A DNA stretch of 64,000 bases from Acholeplasmataceae bacterium (GTDB lineage Bacteria > Bacillota_I > Bacilli_A > Acholeplasmatales > Acholeplasmataceae), in contig OY775910.1 of the NCBI GenBank assembly GCA_963675245.1, positions 576,001 through 640,000 on the forward strand, in the 5' to 3' direction. A program made the translations under genes and the position numbers. The notes beneath the pieces are model-generated. The model ran no database searches. It saw nothing but the letters and a program-made list of their open reading frames with translations, and had not been told where the DNA came from. Numbering within the stretch: the first letter of the stretch is position 1; every line of letters starts with the position of its first letter. Shown here one piece after another: positions 53,944 to 64,000 of the stretch.

Positions 53944-55206
53944 TCAGAAGGTTTTATCATATGATAATAGATCGCGTTTTAGCTCTTTTATAAATATTGA
54001 CTTTAAGAGATGCTTGGAATCGTTGTTAAACCTAACAAATGAAAGATATAAAAAGTGTTTAGCACGTGTCATTCCAACAAAAAATAAGCGTCTTTCCTCT
54101 TGTAAATCTAGGTTCGTTTTCGCATGATAAGATGGTATAGATCCTTGTTCTAAACCAATGATGAAAACGACTGAAAATTCAAGTCCTTTTGCTTGGTGTA
54201 ATGTGAGTAGATTTATCGCCTTTTGAGATACAGAATTAGCGGAATTATCATGATATGCTATATCAAGATAATTCATTTTCTCTTTGAGTGTATAACACCG
54301 ATTATGATTACGAAATAAGACTGCAATATCATTAGCCGTAACACCTTTTTTTAGATGTTCTTCTATGCATTTGCACACGTATTTTGACTCATCGTTTTCA
54401 TTCAAACTTTCAATCAGAAACTGCTTATAGTTATGGTTGTTGTCGGTGACAAGTATTTTCTTATATCTGTTATTATTTCTCTTTATAAGGCTATTTGCCA
54501 GTGTTAAAATGTGATTCGTTGAACGATAATTCATTGTTAATTTTAAAACCTTAGCTTGATAATCTTTAATATATGAATTGATGATTTGAGCGTGAGCACC
54601 ACGAAATTTATAAATGCTTTGATCTGGATCTCCGACACACAAGACATTCGTCTTTTTTGTGATTAATTTTTTGATAATCATGTATTGTAAATAGTTCGTG
54701 TCTTGAAATTCATCAATGAAAATATAATCATAATTCACATAACGTTTTAATTTATGAAAATGATGATGAAAATCAATGAGTAAGTCATCAAAATCTTTTT
54801 CGTTTTTTTCTACTAAAATTGATTGATATACGTGATATTCTTTTGGCTTTTTTTGTCTATAAAAACTATTTTTATATCTTGTAATTAAAAGTAGTGATTC
54901 TTCTTTAATTGGTATGTCTTCAGAGATGATATGATAACTATAATCCAAATGTTCTTTTAACTTCTGAAAACAAAATTGATGGAATGTGTGAATAGCAATG
55001 TTTTCATTTTTAACACGTTCTCTCATTTCATTTGATGCTCGATTTGTGAATGTAATTGCGAGTATTTTATCTGGACTAACACCCGTTGAAACTAGGTGTT
55101 TAATGCGTTCAACAATCACTCTTGTTTTACCTGTACCTGCTCCTGCTAACAAAAAGAGAAAGGGCTCATTTGTATAGACCACTTTCTTTTGTAATTGATT
55201 TAACAT
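53944..55206 (-). CDS. Short UvrD/Rep-family (SF1A) helicase
   Basis: AGAGTGKT, DEFQD, VGDPDQSIY.FRGA, NYRS, TLHQAKGLEF and EERRLFFVGMTRA in only 420 aa. Confidence 0.9.
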   Translation of the reverse strand: MLNQLQKKVVYTNEPFLFLLAGAGTGKTRVIVERIKHLVSTGVSPDKILAITFTNRASNEMRERVKNENIAIHTFHQFCFQKLKEHLDYSYHIISEDIPIKEESLLLITRYKNSFYRQKKPKEYHVYQSILVEKNEKDFDDLLIDFHHHFHKLKRYVNYDYIFIDEFQDTNYLQYMIIKKLITKKTNVLCVGDPDQSIYKFRGAHAQIINSYIKDYQAKVLKLTMNYRSTNHILTLANSLIKRNNNRYKKILVTDNNHNYKQFLIESLNENDESKYVCKCIEEHLKKGVTANDIAVLFRNHNRCYTLKEKMNYLDIAYHDNSANSVSQKAINLLTLHQAKGLEFSVVFIIGLEQGSIPSYHAKTNLDLQEERRLFFVGMTRAKHFLYLSFVRFNNDSKHLLKSIFIKELKRDLLSYDKTF

Positions 55207-55248
55207 ATGACCACCTCTATTTATATTATTGAAGTGGTCAAGTGATTA

Positions 55249-57324
55249 CTATTTTTTAATTTTTTTGATGGCTGGATGACTTTCGAGTATTTGTTTGATA
55301 CCATGTGGCATAGCAAAAGCAATCGTCGCTACATCTTCTTCGACTTTGATGACAACACCTTTTCCAAAAACTTGATGTTCAACGTGGTCTCCCATTTTAA
55401 GTATGTGGCTGCCATTATCAAAAATAATTGGTTTTTCTTTCGGTTGATCAAGTCTTGATTCATCAATGAATCTTGATGGATAACCTAGTCTTTTCTGTCC
55501 ATACACTAATCTTTGATTAGCGTGTGTCATATAAATTTTTTCTTTCGCACGCGTGATGCCTACGTACGCGACGCGACGCTCTTCCTCCAGATCAACTGCA
55601 CTATATTTTGCATTGTCATTTGGAAATATACCTTCTTCCATAACAACCATAAATACGACCTTAAACTCTAGTCCTTTGACTTGATGATACGTGGATAACT
55701 TAACGTGGTTTTCTTCTGTGACATCTTGATCAAGATCCGAATATAATGCAATCTGATCAAGTTGTTGTTGAAGTTTTTCATAAAAATTACCTTCATAATA
55801 TAAATCTCCGCGCACAAATACAGATTGTAATTCTTTAAGATTATCAATACGATTATCGGCGATTTCACTATCTTCAGCTTTCAGCATAGCGACATAGCCC
55901 GTTCTTTCCATCACATACGCCATGATTTGCGATAACTCTGTCATCCCAAAAAATGCTTCGCTAATATCTTCGATCATTTTCTTGAAATCGCTTAATCCCG
56001 TCATAGCTGCTGGTGAAAGTGACATATAATTAATCGCGTCAAACATTGAAATACCTAGTTCTCTCGCTTTATCAACTAATCGTTGCACTGTGACTTGTCC
56101 AATGCCTCTTTTAGGTACGTTAATGATTCTTTTTAGATAAAAATCTTGGTTATGATCAAGGGCTACTCTGATAAATGCGAGCGCATCTTTGATTTCTCTT
56201 CTTTCGTAGAAAGAGATACCACCATAAATAATATATGGCATATTTTCTTTCATCATCGTATCTTCAAAGAGTCTTGAAAGAGCATTGTTTCTGTATAAAA
56301 CAACAATGTCATCATATCGATATCCTTGTCGTACGAGACTATTAATTTCATTAATTACATAAAACGTTTCACGATAATCATTTGGTGCAACATAGTATGT
56401 AATATCTAAACCTGTTCCTAAATCACTTTCCAAATTTTTAGCACTCGGTCTATTAAAGTTGTATGAAATAAGTTTATTTGCTGATTGTAATATCTTAGTT
56501 GTGGATCTATAATTTTTATCTAAAATGACTTTTTCTGCATGAAAATCGCGAATAAACAATTCACTGTTCATGTAGTTCGCTCCTCTGAAACTATAAATAC
56601 TTTGATCGGGATCACCAACAACGAAAATATTTCTGTGTTTAGCACCTAAAATTTTTAATAGTTTATATTGAACGATATCTGTATCTTGAAACTCGTCTAC
56701 TAAAATATGTTCAAAATCTGTTTGGTATCTATCTCTTAAATGTGGATACTCAGTAAATAACTCAAGTGGGTACAGCAATAAGTCATCGAAATCAACTAAT
56801 TGATTGTCATACAAATATTGTTGATATTTCTTATAGATTTTTTCTTCATTTGTTTGATCAAATTTAGGTAATCTTTTCGTCTTGAATAGTGCAATTAGAT
56901 TCTTTAAGTTTTTAATCGAGAATTGTCTGACATCTAACCCAAGTTCCTTGATCGCATCACTGATAATTTTTCTACCGTCTTCTTCATCAATGACATTGAA
57001 TGTCACTTTATACCCATAGGGTAACTCAGCAATATGTCTTCTGAGAATTTGCAAACCAAACGCGTGAAATGTATATAACCACACATCAATCGCGTGTGGA
57101 CCAGTCATGTCGATGACTCGCTCCTTCATTTCACGTGCTGCTTTATTGGTAAACGTCACGGCTAATATGCGCTTCGCTTCAACACCGTTCATGATAAGAT
57201 AAGCAATCCTAGCTGTGAGTGTTCTTGTTTTTCCTGTTCCGGCACCAGCAACAACAAAAAGCGGCCCACCTGGGTGGACGACCGCTTTCAATTGCGATTC
57301 ATTTAGTGTCGCTAGCCAATTCAT
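55249..57324 (-). CDS. pcrA: ATP-dependent DNA helicase PcrA/UvrD
   Basis: Full SF1A motif set, 2B domain (FYERREIKD...INVPKRGIG) and C-terminal Tudor-like HQVFGKG. Confidence 0.92.
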   Translation of the reverse strand: MNWLATLNESQLKAVVHPGGPLFVVAGAGTGKTRTLTARIAYLIMNGVEAKRILAVTFTNKAAREMKERVIDMTGPHAIDVWLYTFHAFGLQILRRHIAELPYGYKVTFNVIDEEDGRKIISDAIKELGLDVRQFSIKNLKNLIALFKTKRLPKFDQTNEEKIYKKYQQYLYDNQLVDFDDLLLYPLELFTEYPHLRDRYQTDFEHILVDEFQDTDIVQYKLLKILGAKHRNIFVVGDPDQSIYSFRGANYMNSELFIRDFHAEKVILDKNYRSTTKILQSANKLISYNFNRPSAKNLESDLGTGLDITYYVAPNDYRETFYVINEINSLVRQGYRYDDIVVLYRNNALSRLFEDTMMKENMPYIIYGGISFYERREIKDALAFIRVALDHNQDFYLKRIINVPKRGIGQVTVQRLVDKARELGISMFDAINYMSLSPAAMTGLSDFKKMIEDISEAFFGMTELSQIMAYVMERTGYVAMLKAEDSEIADNRIDNLKELQSVFVRGDLYYEGNFYEKLQQQLDQIALYSDLDQDVTEENHVKLSTYHQVKGLEFKVVFMVVMEEGIFPNDNAKYSAVDLEEERRVAYVGITRAKEKIYMTHANQRLVYGQKRLGYPSRFIDESRLDQPKEKPIIFDNGSHILKMGDHVEHQVFGKGVVIKVEEDVATIAFAMPHGIKQILESHPAIKKIKK

Positions 57325-57339
57325 GGCATCCCAACTCTC

Positions 57340-58974
57340 TTATTTTTGATAACTGCTCTTTAGTGGCACAGTTTCATTAAACACAAGACTACCTTGTGTT
57401 GTATCATCGTCAGTTGTGAAATATCCAATTCTCATAAACTGATATTTATCTTGAATCTTTGTGTCTTTTAATGCTGCTTCAACAAACCCATGTTTAATTT
57501 CTAAAGAATCTTCATTAAATCGATCCATTAATTCGCTTGATTCATCTTCTGATAACATTGGTTGATAAATATTAAATTGAGCTGGTACCCCTTGGGTAGC
57601 CTCTACGAAATGGATAGTCCCATTAGGTTTACGCGCATCAAAGCCTGATCCACTTCTTGTTTCTGGATCGTAGGTTGCTAACACTTCGATAATGTCACCA
57701 TCGCTGTTATACTTAACATCGACAGCTTTGATAAAATAAGCATAAAATAATCTTACTTCGCCACCTAAATAAAGTCTTTTGAACTTTTTGTTAGGTTTTT
57801 CTAATGCGAAATCATCTTTTTCAATGTAAATATGTTTTGAAAATGGTATATCTCTACTGCCAAATTCTGGATGTTCTTTGTGATACTCTTCATTGAAATA
57901 TTCAATTTTTCCATCAGGGTAATTTGTAATAGTGACCTTTAACGGATTAATCACGGCCATCACTCTGTTAGCTTTATCTGATAAATCGTTTCTAACAGCT
58001 GCTTCAAGCATATCTGCGCCAACTGTAGAATTTACTTTTGATAGTCCTGTGGATAAAATAAATGTTTTAATGGCATCAGGTGTGTAACCGCGACGACGCA
58101 TACCTGATAACGTAGGCATTCTTGGATCATCCCAACCTTTGACCTTCCCTTGTTCCACAAGAGCACGTAAAAATCTTTTTGATAAAACTGTATTTTCGAT
58201 ATTTAATCTGCCAAACTCGATTTGTCTTGGTTGAGCAGGCATATCTGTTTCTCTTACGAACCAATCGTAAAGTGGTCTATGATCTTCAAATTCAAGTGAA
58301 CATAATGAGTGTGTAATGTATTCAACTGCATCTTCTAATGGATGTGCAAAATCATACATTGGGTAAATTACCCACTTGTTACCAGTTCTGTGGTGCTCAG
58401 CATGTACAATACGATAAACAACAGGATCTCTCATGTTCATGTTGGGTGAAGCCATATCAATCTTGGCACGTAAAACACATTCACCTTCAGCAAATTCACC
58501 ATTTTTCATTTTGTCGAATAATGCTAAATTTTCTTCAATGGATGTATCACGATAAGGTGAGTTCTGTCCCGGTGTTGTTACATCACCACGCGTATTAGAT
58601 ATCAATTCTGCTGATTGGAAATCAACATATGCTAATCCTTTTTTGATTAAAATGATGGCACGCTCATACATTTCTGTGAAATAGTCAGAAGCGAAAAGAA
58701 TATGTTTAGGATCATAACCCAACCATCTAATGTCTCTTTCGATTGATTTGACATACACATCATCTTCTTTTTCTGGATTTGTGTCATCATATCTCAAATT
58801 TGTATATCCACCAAAGTATTTTGCTAGTTCAAAATTAGTCACAACAGCTCGTGCATGACCAATATGTAAGAACCCATTGGGTTCTGGTGGAAAACGTGTT
58901 ATGATTTTGTCGTGTTTTTTAGATTCAAGATCATTTTCAATGATTGTCTTGATGAAATTTGATTGATTTTCCAT
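57340..58974 (-). CDS. glnS: Glutamine--tRNA ligase
   Basis: TRFPPEPNGFLHIGH, YPMYDFAH, THSLCSLEF, LSKR and GWDDPRMPT. Confidence 0.97.
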   Translation of the reverse strand: MENQSNFIKTIIENDLESKKHDKIITRFPPEPNGFLHIGHARAVVTNFELAKYFGGYTNLRYDDTNPEKEDDVYVKSIERDIRWLGYDPKHILFASDYFTEMYERAIILIKKGLAYVDFQSAELISNTRGDVTTPGQNSPYRDTSIEENLALFDKMKNGEFAEGECVLRAKIDMASPNMNMRDPVVYRIVHAEHHRTGNKWVIYPMYDFAHPLEDAVEYITHSLCSLEFEDHRPLYDWFVRETDMPAQPRQIEFGRLNIENTVLSKRFLRALVEQGKVKGWDDPRMPTLSGMRRRGYTPDAIKTFILSTGLSKVNSTVGADMLEAAVRNDLSDKANRVMAVINPLKVTITNYPDGKIEYFNEEYHKEHPEFGSRDIPFSKHIYIEKDDFALEKPNKKFKRLYLGGEVRLFYAYFIKAVDVKYNSDGDIIEVLATYDPETRSGSGFDARKPNGTIHFVEATQGVPAQFNIYQPMLSEDESSELMDRFNEDSLEIKHGFVEAALKDTKIQDKYQFMRIGYFTTDDDTTQGSLVFNETVPLKSSYQK

Positions 58975-59059
58975 AATAACATGTAAGATTTAAAGTGTAT
59001 TAAGTTAGTTACTTAAGTCTTTAAATCTTTACTCCTTTCGTTCTAATTTAATATACTAA

Positions 59060-59216
59060 TAATGTACTGTGGATCTGTGTCATATTTTTATAACCTAGAC
59101 TATTTTGAGGTGACGCTTACCACGGTCTTTATTTTAATCAGCAATAGTTAGTTAGCGGAAGACGCTTTTTACATGATTATGAGATAAAGACGCTGCTGGA
59201 CTTACCACACGTACAA
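59060..59216 (+). ncRNA. Putative IS110 bridge RNA (target- and donor-binding loops)
   Basis: Structured left-end region with segments matching the target flank (59104-59114) and both donor ends (59143-59150, 59169-59175); exact transcript ends unknown. Confidence 0.7.
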
Positions 59217-59239
59217 ATTTAATTCTTGGAGGTGTACTT

Positions 59240-60400
59240 ATGATCTATATCGGCATCGATATTTCAAAGTACAAGCATGACTGTTTCATCGCCACCGAAA
59301 CAGTTAGCCATCAGTTCTCATTTGAGAACAGTCAGTCTGGGTTTAAAGAACTATTAGGATACTTTAACTCTTTAGTCAAGCAAGAAATGATAATAGGCTT
59401 AGAGGCCACAGGTCATTATGGAGAAAACCTTAAGTCATTTCTTATCCTCCATGGATATTCATTCATGGAGATTAATCCTTTTCTCGTGAAGAAGTTTGGA
59501 GAAGCCCATTCACTGAGAAAAACAAAGACGGATAAGAAAGATGCACAAATGATTTCAACTTATATGAGATCTGTAGACTACAAAGCCTATCATCATCAAT
59601 CTTATCATATAAGTGCTTTAAAATCACTGACCAGGTTACGTTTTAAACTCATCTCAATTCGGACGAAACACTACAATATGATGACCAAGGTCTTAGATGT
59701 CATCTTTCCTGAATTCAAACCTTTTATGCAAGAACAAGGCTATAGTGATACATCTTTATACATCTTGAAGCGCTTTTCATCACCGGATAAAATAGCAAGG
59801 ATGACTGATGACCACTTCGATAAGCTTCGTAAACGATCGATGGGTAAATTCAATTATCCGAAGTTTGTTAAACTGAAGGAACTCGCAAAATCAACCATTG
59901 GTGTGACACAAGATCATCAACTATTCAAACTTAAGACTTCAATTTCTTATGTTGAGAAACTCAATCAAGATATCGAAGAAACTGAGAAACAGATCACTTC
60001 TTTAATGCATCGATATCCAACTAAGATTCAAACCATTAAAGGTATCGGAATCATTTCAGCAGCTGTCATCGTTTCAGAATATGGTGATATTTCACTTTTC
60101 TCCAATCCCGCTGAAATGTTATCCTATGCAGGTCTGGATTCAACCATCAGACAGTCTGGCACCATGTCTTCAACAGGTAAACTGGTTAAACGTGGCAGCA
60201 AGTACCTAAGAGCAACACTCATCAATATCTCAATGATGGTTATGATCTATAACCCCGTCTTCTACGACTACTACACCAAGAAGAAACAAGAGGGTAAACA
60301 TCATCGTGTCGCACTGGTTCATCTTTCAAAAAAACTCATTAGAGTCATTCATCATCTCGAAACACATCAGGAAGATTTTGATTCCTCTAAACTACAATAA
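59240..60400 (+). CDS. IS110 family transposase/recombinase
   Basis: DEDD RuvC-like GIDISK, GLEATG, KTDKKDA; C-terminal IKGIG, YAGL, QSG and KRGSKYLR. Confidence 0.96.
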   Translation: MIYIGIDISKYKHDCFIATETVSHQFSFENSQSGFKELLGYFNSLVKQEMIIGLEATGHYGENLKSFLILHGYSFMEINPFLVKKFGEAHSLRKTKTDKKDAQMISTYMRSVDYKAYHHQSYHISALKSLTRLRFKLISIRTKHYNMMTKVLDVIFPEFKPFMQEQGYSDTSLYILKRFSSPDKIARMTDDHFDKLRKRSMGKFNYPKFVKLKELAKSTIGVTQDHQLFKLKTSISYVEKLNQDIEETEKQITSLMHRYPTKIQTIKGIGIISAAVIVSEYGDISLFSNPAEMLSYAGLDSTIRQSGTMSSTGKLVKRGSKYLRATLINISMMVMIYNPVFYDYYTKKKQEGKHHRVALVHLSKKLIRVIHHLETHQEDFDSSKLQ

Positions 60401-60525
60401 TTGATTCCTTAAACTGTGGCGGTTAAGTCATAAAATCATCCAGTTATATGGCTAACCTCTAAAAATTATGGCTATTGGAGGTTTTTACAGTTTATCTACT
60501 AAAAGTACTTGACTTTTAATAGTTA

Positions 60526-60575
60526 GTCACCTCAAAGTTATTGTATCATATTTTCGTTTGAAATTATGTTGCTAT
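60526..60575 (-). promoter_or_regulatory. Displaced native SD and probable promoter of glnS
   Basis: Minus strand TAGCAA..N17-18..TATGAT, then GAGGTGA (60527-60533) with no start codon following except across the IS. Confidence 0.6.
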
Positions 60576-60604
60576 CATAAAGAAAAATACCCCGAAAGGA
60601 GTAT

Positions 60605-61540
60605 CTATTCTTCGTCGTTTATTTTAACATATTTTTTATTTTTAACAAACCGCTTTAGTGCAAAATCCACTGGATCAAGTCCCGTGTCTTTGACAATTCG
60701 TTCATAAAACATTTGTTTTTGTTCCGCCGTTCTATGCTCTAAATTCAGGATTGATTGAACTAAATGATGTTCAAATTGTTCTTGATCTCCTAAACGTTGA
60801 TGTGCTAATGCTTTGTAGTAGTGGAAATAGTCTAATAAGTAGTGCATATAATATGCTTCGCATTTTTCAATAGCGATGTTACACATTTCAACCACTTCTT
60901 CGTATTGCTCATTTCTTCCAAAGTTTTTAATCATCCAGAAATAAACGCGATATTCTGCAGTCACATTTCCACCCAAAGAGTGTCCCTTATCTCTCAAAAT
61001 ATCATACAATTTTTTTAGAATTGATTTCCTATCCTTATCGCTATATTCCATTAGAATTCCGAGCATGTATATTTCATCATCAGGGAAAGCTGATTTTTTC
61101 ATCACCCTTGGGTAATCAAGCATTTTATATATTTCGTTAATTAAATCTTCTTTTCTGATTCTTCCGGATTGTAAATCTAATATCAATTTAGAACTTCTAA
61201 ATAAATTCTCGTTAACTGTACTAATAAACACATGACTCTTCATCTTTTGATAATTTTCATACGCTTGAATGCCTTGATTAGAAGCAACCAAATTAAAAAA
61301 ACTTAAAGTGCTTTCGATTTCGTTAGCAAATTCATCGTCAAATTGATCAAGTAAACTAATAATCGAAATATTTAATTTTTCAGCAAATCTAGTAATTACT
61401 TCAAACGGGATTTCGCTTTCACCGCTACGATAGCGATAATATTGACGCTGTGATATAATACCGTCTAAGTAGTTCTCCTGGGAAATTTTTCGATCATATC
61501 TTAAATTTTCCATAAAATTTATTAATTTTAAGCTGTCCAT
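60605..61540 (-). CDS. Rgg/RRNPP-like transcriptional regulator (XRE HTH + TPR-like helical domain)
   Basis: N-terminal LRYDRKISQE...ISQRQYYRYRSGESEIPF HTH; all-helical C-terminus with TPR-like YFHYYKALAHQRLG. Confidence 0.75.
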   Translation of the reverse strand: MDSLKLINFMENLRYDRKISQENYLDGIISQRQYYRYRSGESEIPFEVITRFAEKLNISIISLLDQFDDEFANEIESTLSFFNLVASNQGIQAYENYQKMKSHVFISTVNENLFRSSKLILDLQSGRIRKEDLINEIYKMLDYPRVMKKSAFPDDEIYMLGILMEYSDKDRKSILKKLYDILRDKGHSLGGNVTAEYRVYFWMIKNFGRNEQYEEVVEMCNIAIEKCEAYYMHYLLDYFHYYKALAHQRLGDQEQFEHHLVQSILNLEHRTAEQKQMFYERIVKDTGLDPVDFALKRFVKNKKYVKINDEE

Positions 61541-62236: not shown

Positions 62237-63916
62237 TTAAGGAAGTAACCCTAAAATGTCATCAAGTGACATACCAGAATCAACGAGGTCTTGAGCAAGA
62301 TCAGAGAAGAGTTGTTCTTGTTCTTCATCTGGTAATTCATCAATAGAACTAATGACTGCTTCTACTGCTGCATCCAAGTCTTCCTGTGTCGCGTTTGGAT
62401 CACTTAAATCTGCTAATAAATCATCGATATTTGTTCCTACATCACCGTATGCAGATGCATCAAATGCATCTAAAACATCGGTAACTGTGTCTTGAATGTC
62501 ACTTAATAAATTAGCATCATCAAGTCCAACATATAATCTTAATCTACTATTCATCACACTTACATCTTCAAGTGACATGCCTGATTGTTGAAGTTCTTGG
62601 TCAAAGTTCTCAATAACGATTTGACCATCTTGAATTAAATCGTTATCACCTAACAAAGTCAATATATTTCCGATGTTATCTTCACCGATTGTTACTTCAC
62701 CAGCAGTTAATGAATTTAATGCAATCACTAAATTTGAGCCATCAATTGATGGGCTTGCATCAATCTTAATGATCGTTTTAAATTCTTTTGTATTATCATT
62801 TATATCATATAATGACAATGGTAAATTAACCGTAAGCTGATCGTCTAACATTGAAAGGTATGGGACACCTGCTTTCATTTCATATTGCTCAAACAATTCT
62901 GTTTTCAATAAATAATAGGTGCCTGGATTATCAATATCTTCTGTAAATGAAGATCTCATCATATATTCCATCATGCGATTAAGTGTTAATTCGCCAAATG
63001 AAATGTATGGGTCAGTATCTGTTGTTAATAAACTAACTAATAAAGATGATGCTTTAGACTCTAAGATATCTTGAAGTTCTTGATCTGAAGTTATTCTTTG
63101 ATTGCCAACTGTGAAAGGATCTGTGTCGTCATAAGCTCTACCTAATGCTAATGATGCACTAAATTCACCTTCAGTAAAGCCAACATCAAGCATATCGTTA
63201 GCTTCTAAAAATGATAATAATGAGTTGACTAAAGCAGATTGTTGTGGGTCAGTAATTTGCTCATCTACTAAATTTTGAATGTCGATATTAACTGATCTTG
63301 TAGCAACATCAAATTCCCCTAAACCACCCAACTGTTCATTAATCATTGCTGAAATATCTTGTTGAGCAATGGTTTTTACAAGCCAGTCTGCGACTGGAAA
63401 TGCCCATGCTAATCCTAAATTCCCGATTGTTAGTTTATCTAATGTCAATGTGACATTTTCTGTCGTGACATCCAATGTAAACCTTAACAAAAGTCTTGTT
63501 CGATATGTAATACCCGCAACAAACACGTGGGCACCAGCTTCAACTTCAACAATATCGTCTTGGAATCTCATCCACGCCCCTTGTAAACCATAATACTCAG
63601 TTTTTTGGACGTATTGATCATCATCTCCACCAGAACCATCTAAGTAATTAGGGTTCATATCTAGGAACACCATATTCTTAATCATGGTGTTAGCATCAGA
63701 CTGTTCTAAGCCAAGACTAATTTCTGAAGCACTATTTGTGTTTGTCAAAAATGAATCTAATTCAGTCGTTACCATTTCGGTCAGATTAGCTGGACCAGTT
63801 GTTGTGTAATCCTCTACTGGAATGTCAACACTCTTATACATGAGCGCTAAAATGGTAACCGGAATAGCAAGAATAACTAATATTGGTAAGATAAATACTT
63901 TAAAAATAAACTTCAT
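62237..63916 (-). CDS. Hypothetical membrane-anchored acidic protein
   Basis: N-terminal TM, about 530-aa D/E-rich ectodomain; SD AGGGAG; no family recognised. Confidence 0.7.
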   Translation of the reverse strand: MKFIFKVFILPILVILAIPVTILALMYKSVDIPVEDYTTTGPANLTEMVTTELDSFLTNTNSASEISLGLEQSDANTMIKNMVFLDMNPNYLDGSGGDDDQYVQKTEYYGLQGAWMRFQDDIVEVEAGAHVFVAGITYRTRLLLRFTLDVTTENVTLTLDKLTIGNLGLAWAFPVADWLVKTIAQQDISAMINEQLGGLGEFDVATRSVNIDIQNLVDEQITDPQQSALVNSLLSFLEANDMLDVGFTEGEFSASLALGRAYDDTDPFTVGNQRITSDQELQDILESKASSLLVSLLTTDTDPYISFGELTLNRMMEYMMRSSFTEDIDNPGTYYLLKTELFEQYEMKAGVPYLSMLDDQLTVNLPLSLYDINDNTKEFKTIIKIDASPSIDGSNLVIALNSLTAGEVTIGEDNIGNILTLLGDNDLIQDGQIVIENFDQELQQSGMSLEDVSVMNSRLRLYVGLDDANLLSDIQDTVTDVLDAFDASAYGDVGTNIDDLLADLSDPNATQEDLDAAVEAVISSIDELPDEEQEQLFSDLAQDLVDSGMSLDDILGLLP

Positions 63917-64000
63917 ATGTCTCACTCCCTTATGCGTATATAATATAATTTTTTAGTGAAAACCACAATAGATATACGCTATTCTTTTAAACATCATTAA

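Follow-up and report, generated by a model that had tools for sequence, protein, structure and literature searches.

Element and target at the glnS locus

We analyzed a 64,000-nucleotide stretch of DNA from an Acholeplasmataceae bacterium (contig OY775910.1 of assembly GCA_963675245.1, forward-strand positions 576,001 to 640,000), called the window below and used for all coordinates, in which an insertion sequence (IS) of the IS110 family lies directly upstream of glnS, the gene for glutamine--tRNA ligase. The gene occupies 57340..58974 on the minus strand as an intact open reading frame (ORF) of 544 amino acids (aa), with its start codon at 58974-58972 (CAT at 58972-58974 on the plus strand). 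It matches TIGR00440 (E 1.3e-194), NF011291 (E 2.8e-220) and the Pfam family tRNA-synt_1c, and it is free of stops and 88% identical at the amino acid level to the glnS product of the closest relative, genome G006. The element, 1548 bp long with one copy of its core counted, spans 58980..60527 on the plus strand; the borders 58982-60529 are equally valid. The genome consists of one contig of 1,626,300 bp with 33.9% G+C and is 99.96% complete.

The borders were set by comparing the four copies of the element in this genome with each other and with uninterrupted sites in relatives. The copies differ at no more than 2 positions and have in common a block that at glnS covers 58980-60533 (CATGTAAG...TTAGTCACCTC), and exactly 5 nt to the left of this block there is, in 4/4 copies, a CAT (the opposite strand reads ATG). 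The three other copies have entered sites before an lpdA-like flavoprotein gene, a GDSL lipase gene and a 109-aa ORF. For glnS we compared 30 loci, those of 29 relatives and this genome, and 28 of them are uninterrupted; the empty sites for the lpdA-like and GDSL targets are found in G006 and G005. On the gene strand the empty glnS site of G006 reads ...acaataactgtGAGGTGTTATT-ATG, that is, GAGGTG-TTATT-ATG (CCATAATAACACCTC on the plus strand), while the filled site in the window reads ...acaataactttGAGG-TG-[element]-TG-TTATT-ATG, so that GAGG-TG-[IS]-TG-TTATT stands against GAGGTGTTATT. Because of this empty site, GAGGTG is assigned to the Shine-Dalgarno (SD) sequence of the target rather than to the element, the core is TG/CA, and the length of the element is 1548 bp. 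Excision in silico of 58982-60529 restores the G006 site base for base.

It follows from the same comparison that the original spacer, TTATT on the gene strand (5 nt, 58975..58979, minus strand), now lies between the left end of the element and the ATG, and is the same as in the G006 empty site. The orphaned native SD of glnS, GAGGTG on the gene strand, lies beyond the right end (60528..60533, minus strand), and its TG is the second core copy; this assignment is based on the empty sites with GAGGTG-N5-ATG in 8/10 genomes of the genus. The core copies, CA on the plus strand and TG on the gene strand, are at 58980-58981 and 60528-60529. The ends of the element read CA-TGTAAG... and ...TTAGT-CA, with the 2-nt core at both junctions, no further target duplication, and no terminal inverted repeats. 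We regard the identity and position of the element as almost certain.

A preliminary description, made from the letters of this DNA, had placed an IS110 element between the SD and the ATG of glnS, with the reading frame intact and the target not duplicated. The empty sites and the ends common to the four copies bear out both statements, filled and empty sites differing by the 1548 bp of the element, one core copy included, and the junction strings that it quoted are present in the sequence. Its borders (58979-60525), its TA core and its reconstructed empty site (CCATAATAGTCACCTC) are off by 1-3 bases and do not reproduce the G006 site; thus, of its expectations for relatives, the uninterrupted site was found but with a different sequence, while the other copies do share their ends, 58980-60533. 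It had also suggested a search for mixed empty and filled alleles. The public sequencing data that carry the stretch are four runs of the organism, all available as contigs, and none of them is an RNA run, the metatranscriptomes sharing less than a tenth of its words; the contigs span both glnS junctions, and a second sample has the right junction at glnS. We saw filled junctions only, with neither the empty-site joint nor the junction of an excised circle, although contigs drop rare variants and cannot show that either is absent. Runs X1-X3 contain, in addition, a 1554-nt contig of the IS with T at 59997 and about 3x the depth of the flanks, which fits the three other copies (T) and not the glnS copy (C).

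A second filled glnS site is present in another species of the genus, in genome G009 (locus L008, G009:C23). The element there is a diverged relative with about 75% similarity across the 85 nt that can be read before the contig breaks off within it, and it ends at the same place upstream of glnS. As the closer relatives G006 and G005 are uninterrupted at glnS, this ribosome-binding site was probably hit twice independently, to judge from the sequences.

The transposase

The element encodes an IS110-family DEDD/Ser recombinase of 386 aa (59240..60400, plus strand), preceded by its own SD, GGAGGTG, at 59228-59234. The protein matches the NF033542 model 'IS110 family RNA-guided transposase' with 231.3 bits against a cut-off of 140. 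Its N-terminal DEDD RuvC-like domain matches PF01548 over the full length of the model (1-155/155, E 4.9e-36) and its C-terminal Tnp domain matches PF02371 (E 4.7e-22), with S306 in ...RQSGT aligned with ...YESGS of ISCro4. Among recombinases with solved structures, it aligns with those of ISCro4 (PDB 9t56, E 7e-17) and IS621 (8wt6, E 1.2e-15). Residues D7, E55, D98 and D101 align with identical residues of ISCro4, and we take them to be catalytic, as in IS621. The corresponding residues named for IS621, in the available excerpts of its description, are D11, E60, D102 and D105 (PMC11208158).

The ribosome-binding site of the transposase gene, GAGGTG-TACTT-ATG (59228-59242), is itself an exact copy of the target motif, and the element could in principle insert into another copy of itself.

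Bridge RNA and choice of target

Elements of this kind are directed to their targets by a bridge RNA, and in the published model loop 1 of this RNA has on its 3' side the right target guide, followed by the core and by two handshake bases that pair with the end of the element (PMC11208160, PMC11208158). The left end of the element encodes such an RNA. Folds and covariation point to a target-binding stem-loop at 59066..59126 and a donor-binding stem-loop at 59125..59190, both on the plus strand, and a promoter-like sequence, TTTACT-18-TATACT, picked out by its consensus match alone, lies just upstream (59028..59057, plus strand). In an alignment of 14 distinct left ends, pairing in the two stem-loops with their internal loops holds for 96.4% of cells, and 12 pairs differ at both partners, a level reached in 0/500 shuffles and nowhere near reached by slid controls. 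A scan of 58900-60650 against Rfam returned no real family, the one hit being a chance snoRNA match (E 0.44).

The 3' side of the internal loop of the target-binding stem-loop reads GAGG-UG-AC (GAGGUGAC; 59107-59114, plus strand), which corresponds to right target guide, core and handshake guide. It complements the top-strand right junction GT-CA-CCTC, in which the two final bases of the element are followed by the core and the target SD. The same relation holds across the family. In 48/48 distinct pairs of junction and left end, the right junction is copied exactly in the left end over 6-12 nt (mode 9), compared with a mean of 4.5 for shuffled left ends, and the copied stretch equals the right target, the core and 2-3 nt of the element; from this set we had dropped 16 rows for which the right-end rule and the left end gave conflicting cores. 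In 45/48 pairs the copy is at the place expected in loop 1, ahead of the CCACRG stem by 3-7 nt. Moreover, the guide changes together with the SD variant that was hit, as in GAGGTGAC, GGGGTGAC, GGAGTGAC, GGAGATGAC, TAGGAGGCT, GAAAGGCT and others.

The donor-binding stem-loop contains a left donor guide, AAUAGUUAGU (59143-59152, plus strand), and a right donor guide, UUACAUG (59169-59175, plus strand), which match the two ends of the element over 10 nt and 7 nt and lie 26 nt apart. A crude and noisy family-wide search for donor guides gave the expected offset of 20-31 nt in 27/52 variants (25-31 nt in 26/52), with shuffled means of 5.7-5.8. We also considered GACTATT, which stands beside GAGGTG, as a guide for the spacer ACTAT, and rejected it, since the alignment places it in the inner stem of loop 1, as the 3' strand of a helix that shows 9 compensatory changes.

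Because the 3' side of the loop complements GT-CA-CCTC, recombination is expected at the CA/TG at the 3' edge of SDs of the GAGGTG type, and the element lands in one orientation, without duplication, between SD and start codon. On excision, the -35 TTGACT (60509-60514) at the right end, where it stands together with the 13-nt left-donor end (60509..60527, plus strand), would be brought to the TAAGAT of the left end to form a junction promoter on the circle, TTGACT-17 nt-TAAGAT, and the geometry is equal in other variants. There are 321 GAGGTG sites in the genome and 113 GAGGTGA sites, 45 of which precede a start codon; the element has many possible landing sites and uses four. At the level of sequence, we consider RNA-guided targeting of the SD very likely, with the excision and insertion steps themselves predicted.

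Insertion sites across the clade

Relatives of the transposase were found in 12/40 related genomes. They gave 30 loci, 25 of which have an evaluable left end, and in 25/25 of these a start codon lies 4-10 nt past the core and opens an ORF of at least 109 aa. We added 80 loci from public genome contigs labelled Acholeplasmataceae, Izemoplasmatales, gut Bacilli, Erysipelotrichaceae and Clostridia, for a total of 110. A terminal hairpin was detected in 103/110 loci, and 83/103 passed our filters (core TG or AG, a purine motif, and a hairpin of at most 56 nt), leaving 67 unique evaluable insertion sites. A start codon follows the core within 4-14 nt at 59/67 sites, at 5-6 nt in 43 of them, and is ATG in 58 cases and GTG in 1. 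The preliminary description had seen a single event; the placement is no coincidence, and the targeting of SDs is a property of the whole clade.

We asked whether the element recognizes the start codon as well, and found no clear excess of 5-6 nt spacers (43/59 IS sites vs 29/45 native GAGGTGA sites). The nearby ATG is therefore explained by the target being a real SD. One exception to the ribosome-binding-site rule is locus L140 (JAVVFA010000048.1), where a shortened right end, TTGACTTTTAA, is directly followed by TGGAGGACCC... and seems, by eye, to abut the 3' end of a tRNA gene. In many targets, among them L036, L037, L049, L050, L054, L061 and the window itself (60540-60548), a TATAAT-like box precedes the interrupted SD by just 6-12 nt. 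The elements may thus often sit behind promoters with very short leaders, whether through preference, survivor bias or the norm of these genomes.

Gene-facing end of the element

At its gene-facing end the element carries GAAAGGAG on the gene strand (CTCCTTTC on the plus strand; 59032..59039, minus strand), an 8-nt complement of the 3' tail of 16S rRNA and hence a candidate replacement SD. The 16S rRNA of this genome ends in ...GGATCACCTCCTTTCTAAGG, the part of the tail complementary to the motif being ...CACCUCCUUUCU. Next to the motif is a terminal inverted repeat, or hairpin (58983..59032, minus strand), with arms at 58983-58995 and 59019-59032; the minimum-free-energy (MFE) fold covers 58985-59029 at -13.5 kcal/mol. 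Its outer arm is the right-donor end and contains the -10 TAAGAT of the junction promoter (58984-58989).

Read along the gene strand, the end of the element has the order GAAAGGAG, hairpin, ACA-TG, and the same order is seen in 13/13 distinct variants from relatives; in the larger set, the motif precedes the hairpin in 83/103 loci with a terminal hairpin. The complement to the 16S tail is 5-9 nt long and reaches at least 7 nt in 43/59 sites. The arms of the hairpin co-vary, with 38 arm sequences in 63 distinct variants, and the longest stems are 5-11 bp compared with 5.4 in shuffles. We assessed the terminal hairpins by per-sequence folds; RNAalifold returned no structure for the mixed alignment of gene-strand ends (A1), in which the groups are out of register. 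G-U pairs in the hairpin number 33 on the gene strand vs 16 on the transposase strand, a count in favor of the gene strand that the folding energies given below do not share.

If the hairpin forms in the glnS transcript, it would loop out about 45-50 nt and leave the SD of the element 8-12 nt from the ATG. Specifically, the predicted spacing at glnS is the sum of 10 unpaired nt between the minimum-energy stem and the ATG and 2 nt on the 5' side of that stem, or 8 nt if two further pairs form across a bulge. Over the 59 sites, the predicted distance from SD to start is 6-19 nt with the hairpin skipped and 43-62 nt unskipped; as a rough general figure, the hairpin would bring the motif to some 6-13 nt from the host start. 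Translation of glnS would then be re-initiated from the element's own SD, GAAAGGAG, as a split ribosome-binding site, and the hairpin would loop out sequences that the element needs for recombination and for its junction promoter. We put forward tentatively, with somewhat less than even confidence and from predicted folds, that the element carries a portable split ribosome-binding site.

In the variants with core TG, the last A of the element and the core together make an ATG at the junction (ACA-TG; 58978-58982 in the window). This ATG is in frame with the host start at 6-nt spacers (for example, L037, L050 and L054) and out of frame at 5-nt spacers, as at glnS.

Expression of glnS

The locus poses the question of how an essential gene survives with 1.5 kb between its SD and its ATG. 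The preliminary description had noted that the run of genes headed by glnS contains usually essential ones, and for glnS the genome content agrees: gatB was not found in this 99.96%-complete genome, although an identical search finds it in 12 control genomes, and glnS is present in one copy. From established knowledge, glnS is very probably essential here, with GlnRS as the sole route to Gln-tRNA. With no gatB found and a single glnS, the gene must still be expressed.

The native promoter of glnS is probably an extended -10 element, TGATACAAT (60540..60548, minus strand), that we read by eye and that would now point into the antisense strand of the IS; a -10-like box is conserved in relatives at 8-12 nt from the SD on its upstream side. 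Our scan for two-hexamer promoters did not list it. The earlier statement that the insertion parted glnS from both its SD and its promoter thus holds for the SD, by the empty sites, while for the promoter it depends on this box. No intrinsic terminator was predicted on the minus strand within the element, and no Rho gene was found in the genome, which makes antisense read-through plausible. The most likely route to a glnS message would be transcription from the native promoter through the 1.5-kb element in antisense. An antisense ORF like the hed ORF of IS900 was not found: past the orphaned SD each of the three frames meets a stop within about 45 nt, no antisense ORF is longer than 51 aa, and the IS contains no minus-strand ORF of at least 60 aa. 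Taken as a whole, the explanation that an RNA-guided IS110 element landed at the SD and that glnS is read through seems to us likely on these data, its last part, re-initiation from an SD borne by the element, having somewhat less than even odds.

Alternative explanations

Several observations weigh against parts of this explanation. The left target guide was not identified: we tried several registers by eye on alignment A2, and none follows the core (CA or CT) or the left targets, while (G)UCA is all of the 5' side of loop 1 (AUCUGUGUCAUAUUUUU) that agrees with the four left targets. At 8/67 insertion sites no start codon is evident. In addition, 27/110 loci failed automatic end detection or the filters, mostly through mis-set borders; these include a group at about 47% identity, to which the five copies in G001 belong; its core is CT and its target AAGG-AG, as resolved by hand. 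Because the purine motif is among the filters, the 83-locus count is not independent of the motif. The aligned spacing with the hairpin skipped has its mode at 11 nt, compared with 4-11 nt and a mode of 7 in native genes, and folding energy favors the gene strand of the hairpin in 28 variants and the transposase strand in 26, with 1 tie (Wilcoxon p 0.19). The promoter scan found no outward promoter on the gene strand in the left end. Finally, RNAalifold offers the CCUUU in the motif another partner, the SD of the transposase gene.

These last points bear on an alternative that we judge unlikely but take seriously, namely that the motif (CTCCTTTC) and the terminal hairpin serve the element rather than the host gene, and that glnS is translated without an SD at a lower but sufficient level. 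The motif might, on the transposase strand, be a mimic of the anti-SD that pairs with the transposase SD and limits translation of long or read-in transcripts; RNAalifold indeed pairs columns 58-62 (CCUUU) with the SD GGAGG in 14/14 sequences. However, this helix has 5 bp, two of them U-G pairs, spans about 240 nt and hardly varies, so that it draws no support from covariation, and it leaves the longer conservation of AGAAAGG(AG) unexplained, which matches the 16S tail over 7-9 nt in 43/59 sites. The inverted repeat, for its part, might be a DNA or RNA signal for the recombinase or the junction promoter. The overlap of its outer arm with the right-donor end and the -10 box fits such a role, as does a strand test that shows no clear preference for the gene strand, but transcripts from the junction promoter or from the internal promoter-like sequence would, judging by the positions, lack the outer arm.

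It is very unlikely, in our view, that the insertion is damaging, recent or transient, with glnS poorly expressed and the clone kept alive by an empty-site sub-population or by Gln-tRNA of some other origin. The near identity of the four copies does suggest recent insertion. Nevertheless, gatB was not found and glnS is single-copy; contigs of two samples, which drop rare variants, carry the right glnS junction and no empty-site joint; a diverged relative of the element occupies the same glnS site in G009; and in G019 a gene with a GTG start, similar by eye around that start to the lpdA-like target, has 6 nt upstream of it a relative of the element with 84% amino acid identity in the transposase. 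An error in the borders is the most improbable of the alternatives, barely worth entertaining: the GAGGTGAC at the right border would belong to the element as its own SD, its insertion upstream of the ATG then having some different cause, or the borders with the TA core would be correct. That sequence is common to all four copies, which alone cannot separate element from target, but element-free relatives have GAGGTG at the exact place upstream of the glnS, lpdA-like and GDSL genes, and it is removal of 58982-60529, not the earlier reconstruction, that yields the G006 site.

Comparison with known systems

Targeting of SDs by IS110 elements is already known from IS900 and IS901. The available excerpts of one report state that some IS elements insert between SD and start codon, citing Doran 1997 for IS900 and Inglis 2003 for IS901 (PMC2942039), and those of another that the hed ORF of IS900 runs along the whole complementary strand and is said to depend on an SD and promoter of the host (PMC8141618). 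As far as these excerpts go, the element described here resembles IS900 and IS901 of Mycobacterium avium in belonging to the IS110 family, in inserting between SD and start codon in a fixed orientation, in lacking inverted repeats, and in carrying the transposase gene on the strand opposite the target gene. Unlike IS900, it has no hed-like ORF and has instead a conserved SD-like motif and a hairpin at its gene-facing end. The host, unlike those of IS900 and IS901, has low G+C, and the likeness rests on insertion behavior, not on sequence relatedness.

The machinery resembles that of IS621 and ISCro4, again as far as the published text could be consulted: a DEDD plus Ser recombinase; a non-coding RNA at the left end with target- and donor-binding stem-loops; a loop 1 whose 3' side bears right target guide, core and 2-nt handshake; a loop 2 with the donor guides; and a junction promoter split between the two ends. 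It differs in that 15-17% of the protein gives a significant sequence alignment, in that the natural target is an SD and not a repetitive extragenic element, and in that the right target guide is longer (6-9 nt) with no clear left target guide found. The core is CA here, unlike the CT of IS621, although other variants of the element use CT.

Split ribosome-binding sites are described for phage T4, where, in the excerpts at hand, a hairpin reduces the distance from SD to start from 22 to 5 nt in gene 38 and from 27 to 11 nt in gene 25 (PMC3014915). As in those genes, the SD proposed here is far from the start in the primary sequence and would be brought near by an intervening hairpin. Unlike in T4, the looped-out part is 36-53 nt, it lies on a mobile element and would be completed only upon insertion, and its function is a predicted one. 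The literature that we searched, which was not exhaustive and excluded supplements (it included PMC11187229 and 10.64898/2026.10.21.760802, both in part), contained neither a bridge-RNA account of SD targeting nor an SD borne by an element; Supplementary Data 2 of PMC11208160, which gives target motifs per guide, may list SD-like targets.

Significance

The habit of IS900 of landing between SD and start codon has been seen since the 1990s. The sequences described here show why some IS110 elements behave in this way: their bridge RNA has an SD sequence as its right target guide, and different variants of the element are tuned to different SD variants. More broadly, a large clade of bridge-RNA IS110 elements in low-GC bacteria (Acholeplasmataceae, Izemoplasmatales, gut Bacilli, Erysipelotrichaceae and Clostridia) may cut the ribosome-binding sites of its hosts and carry a replacement SD, a proposal to which we give just under half of our belief. 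If it is true, insertion into a ribosome-binding site would be nearly neutral, even in the essential glnS, and each genome would offer conserved sites by the hundred at which the element could land safely. A portable split ribosome-binding site made of GAAAGGAG and the hairpin would be a novel means by which a mobile element makes its insertion less costly, and a ready-made part for designing bridge-recombinase insertions with an active gene downstream. Otherwise, the motif is still an unexplained conserved signal in a family used for genome engineering.

Neighboring genes

Upstream of the glnS promoter are two minus-strand ORFs, of 311 aa (60605-61540) and 562 aa (62237-63925). Neither has a Pfam family, and the 311-aa ORF gave weak sub-threshold matches to models of HTH-type repressors. 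Directly downstream of glnS, two genes for UvrD/PcrA-like helicases lie in tandem on the minus strand (53944-57324); one encodes 691 aa and scores under the PcrA equivalog cut-off, and the other, at 420 aa, is short but has both helicase domains.

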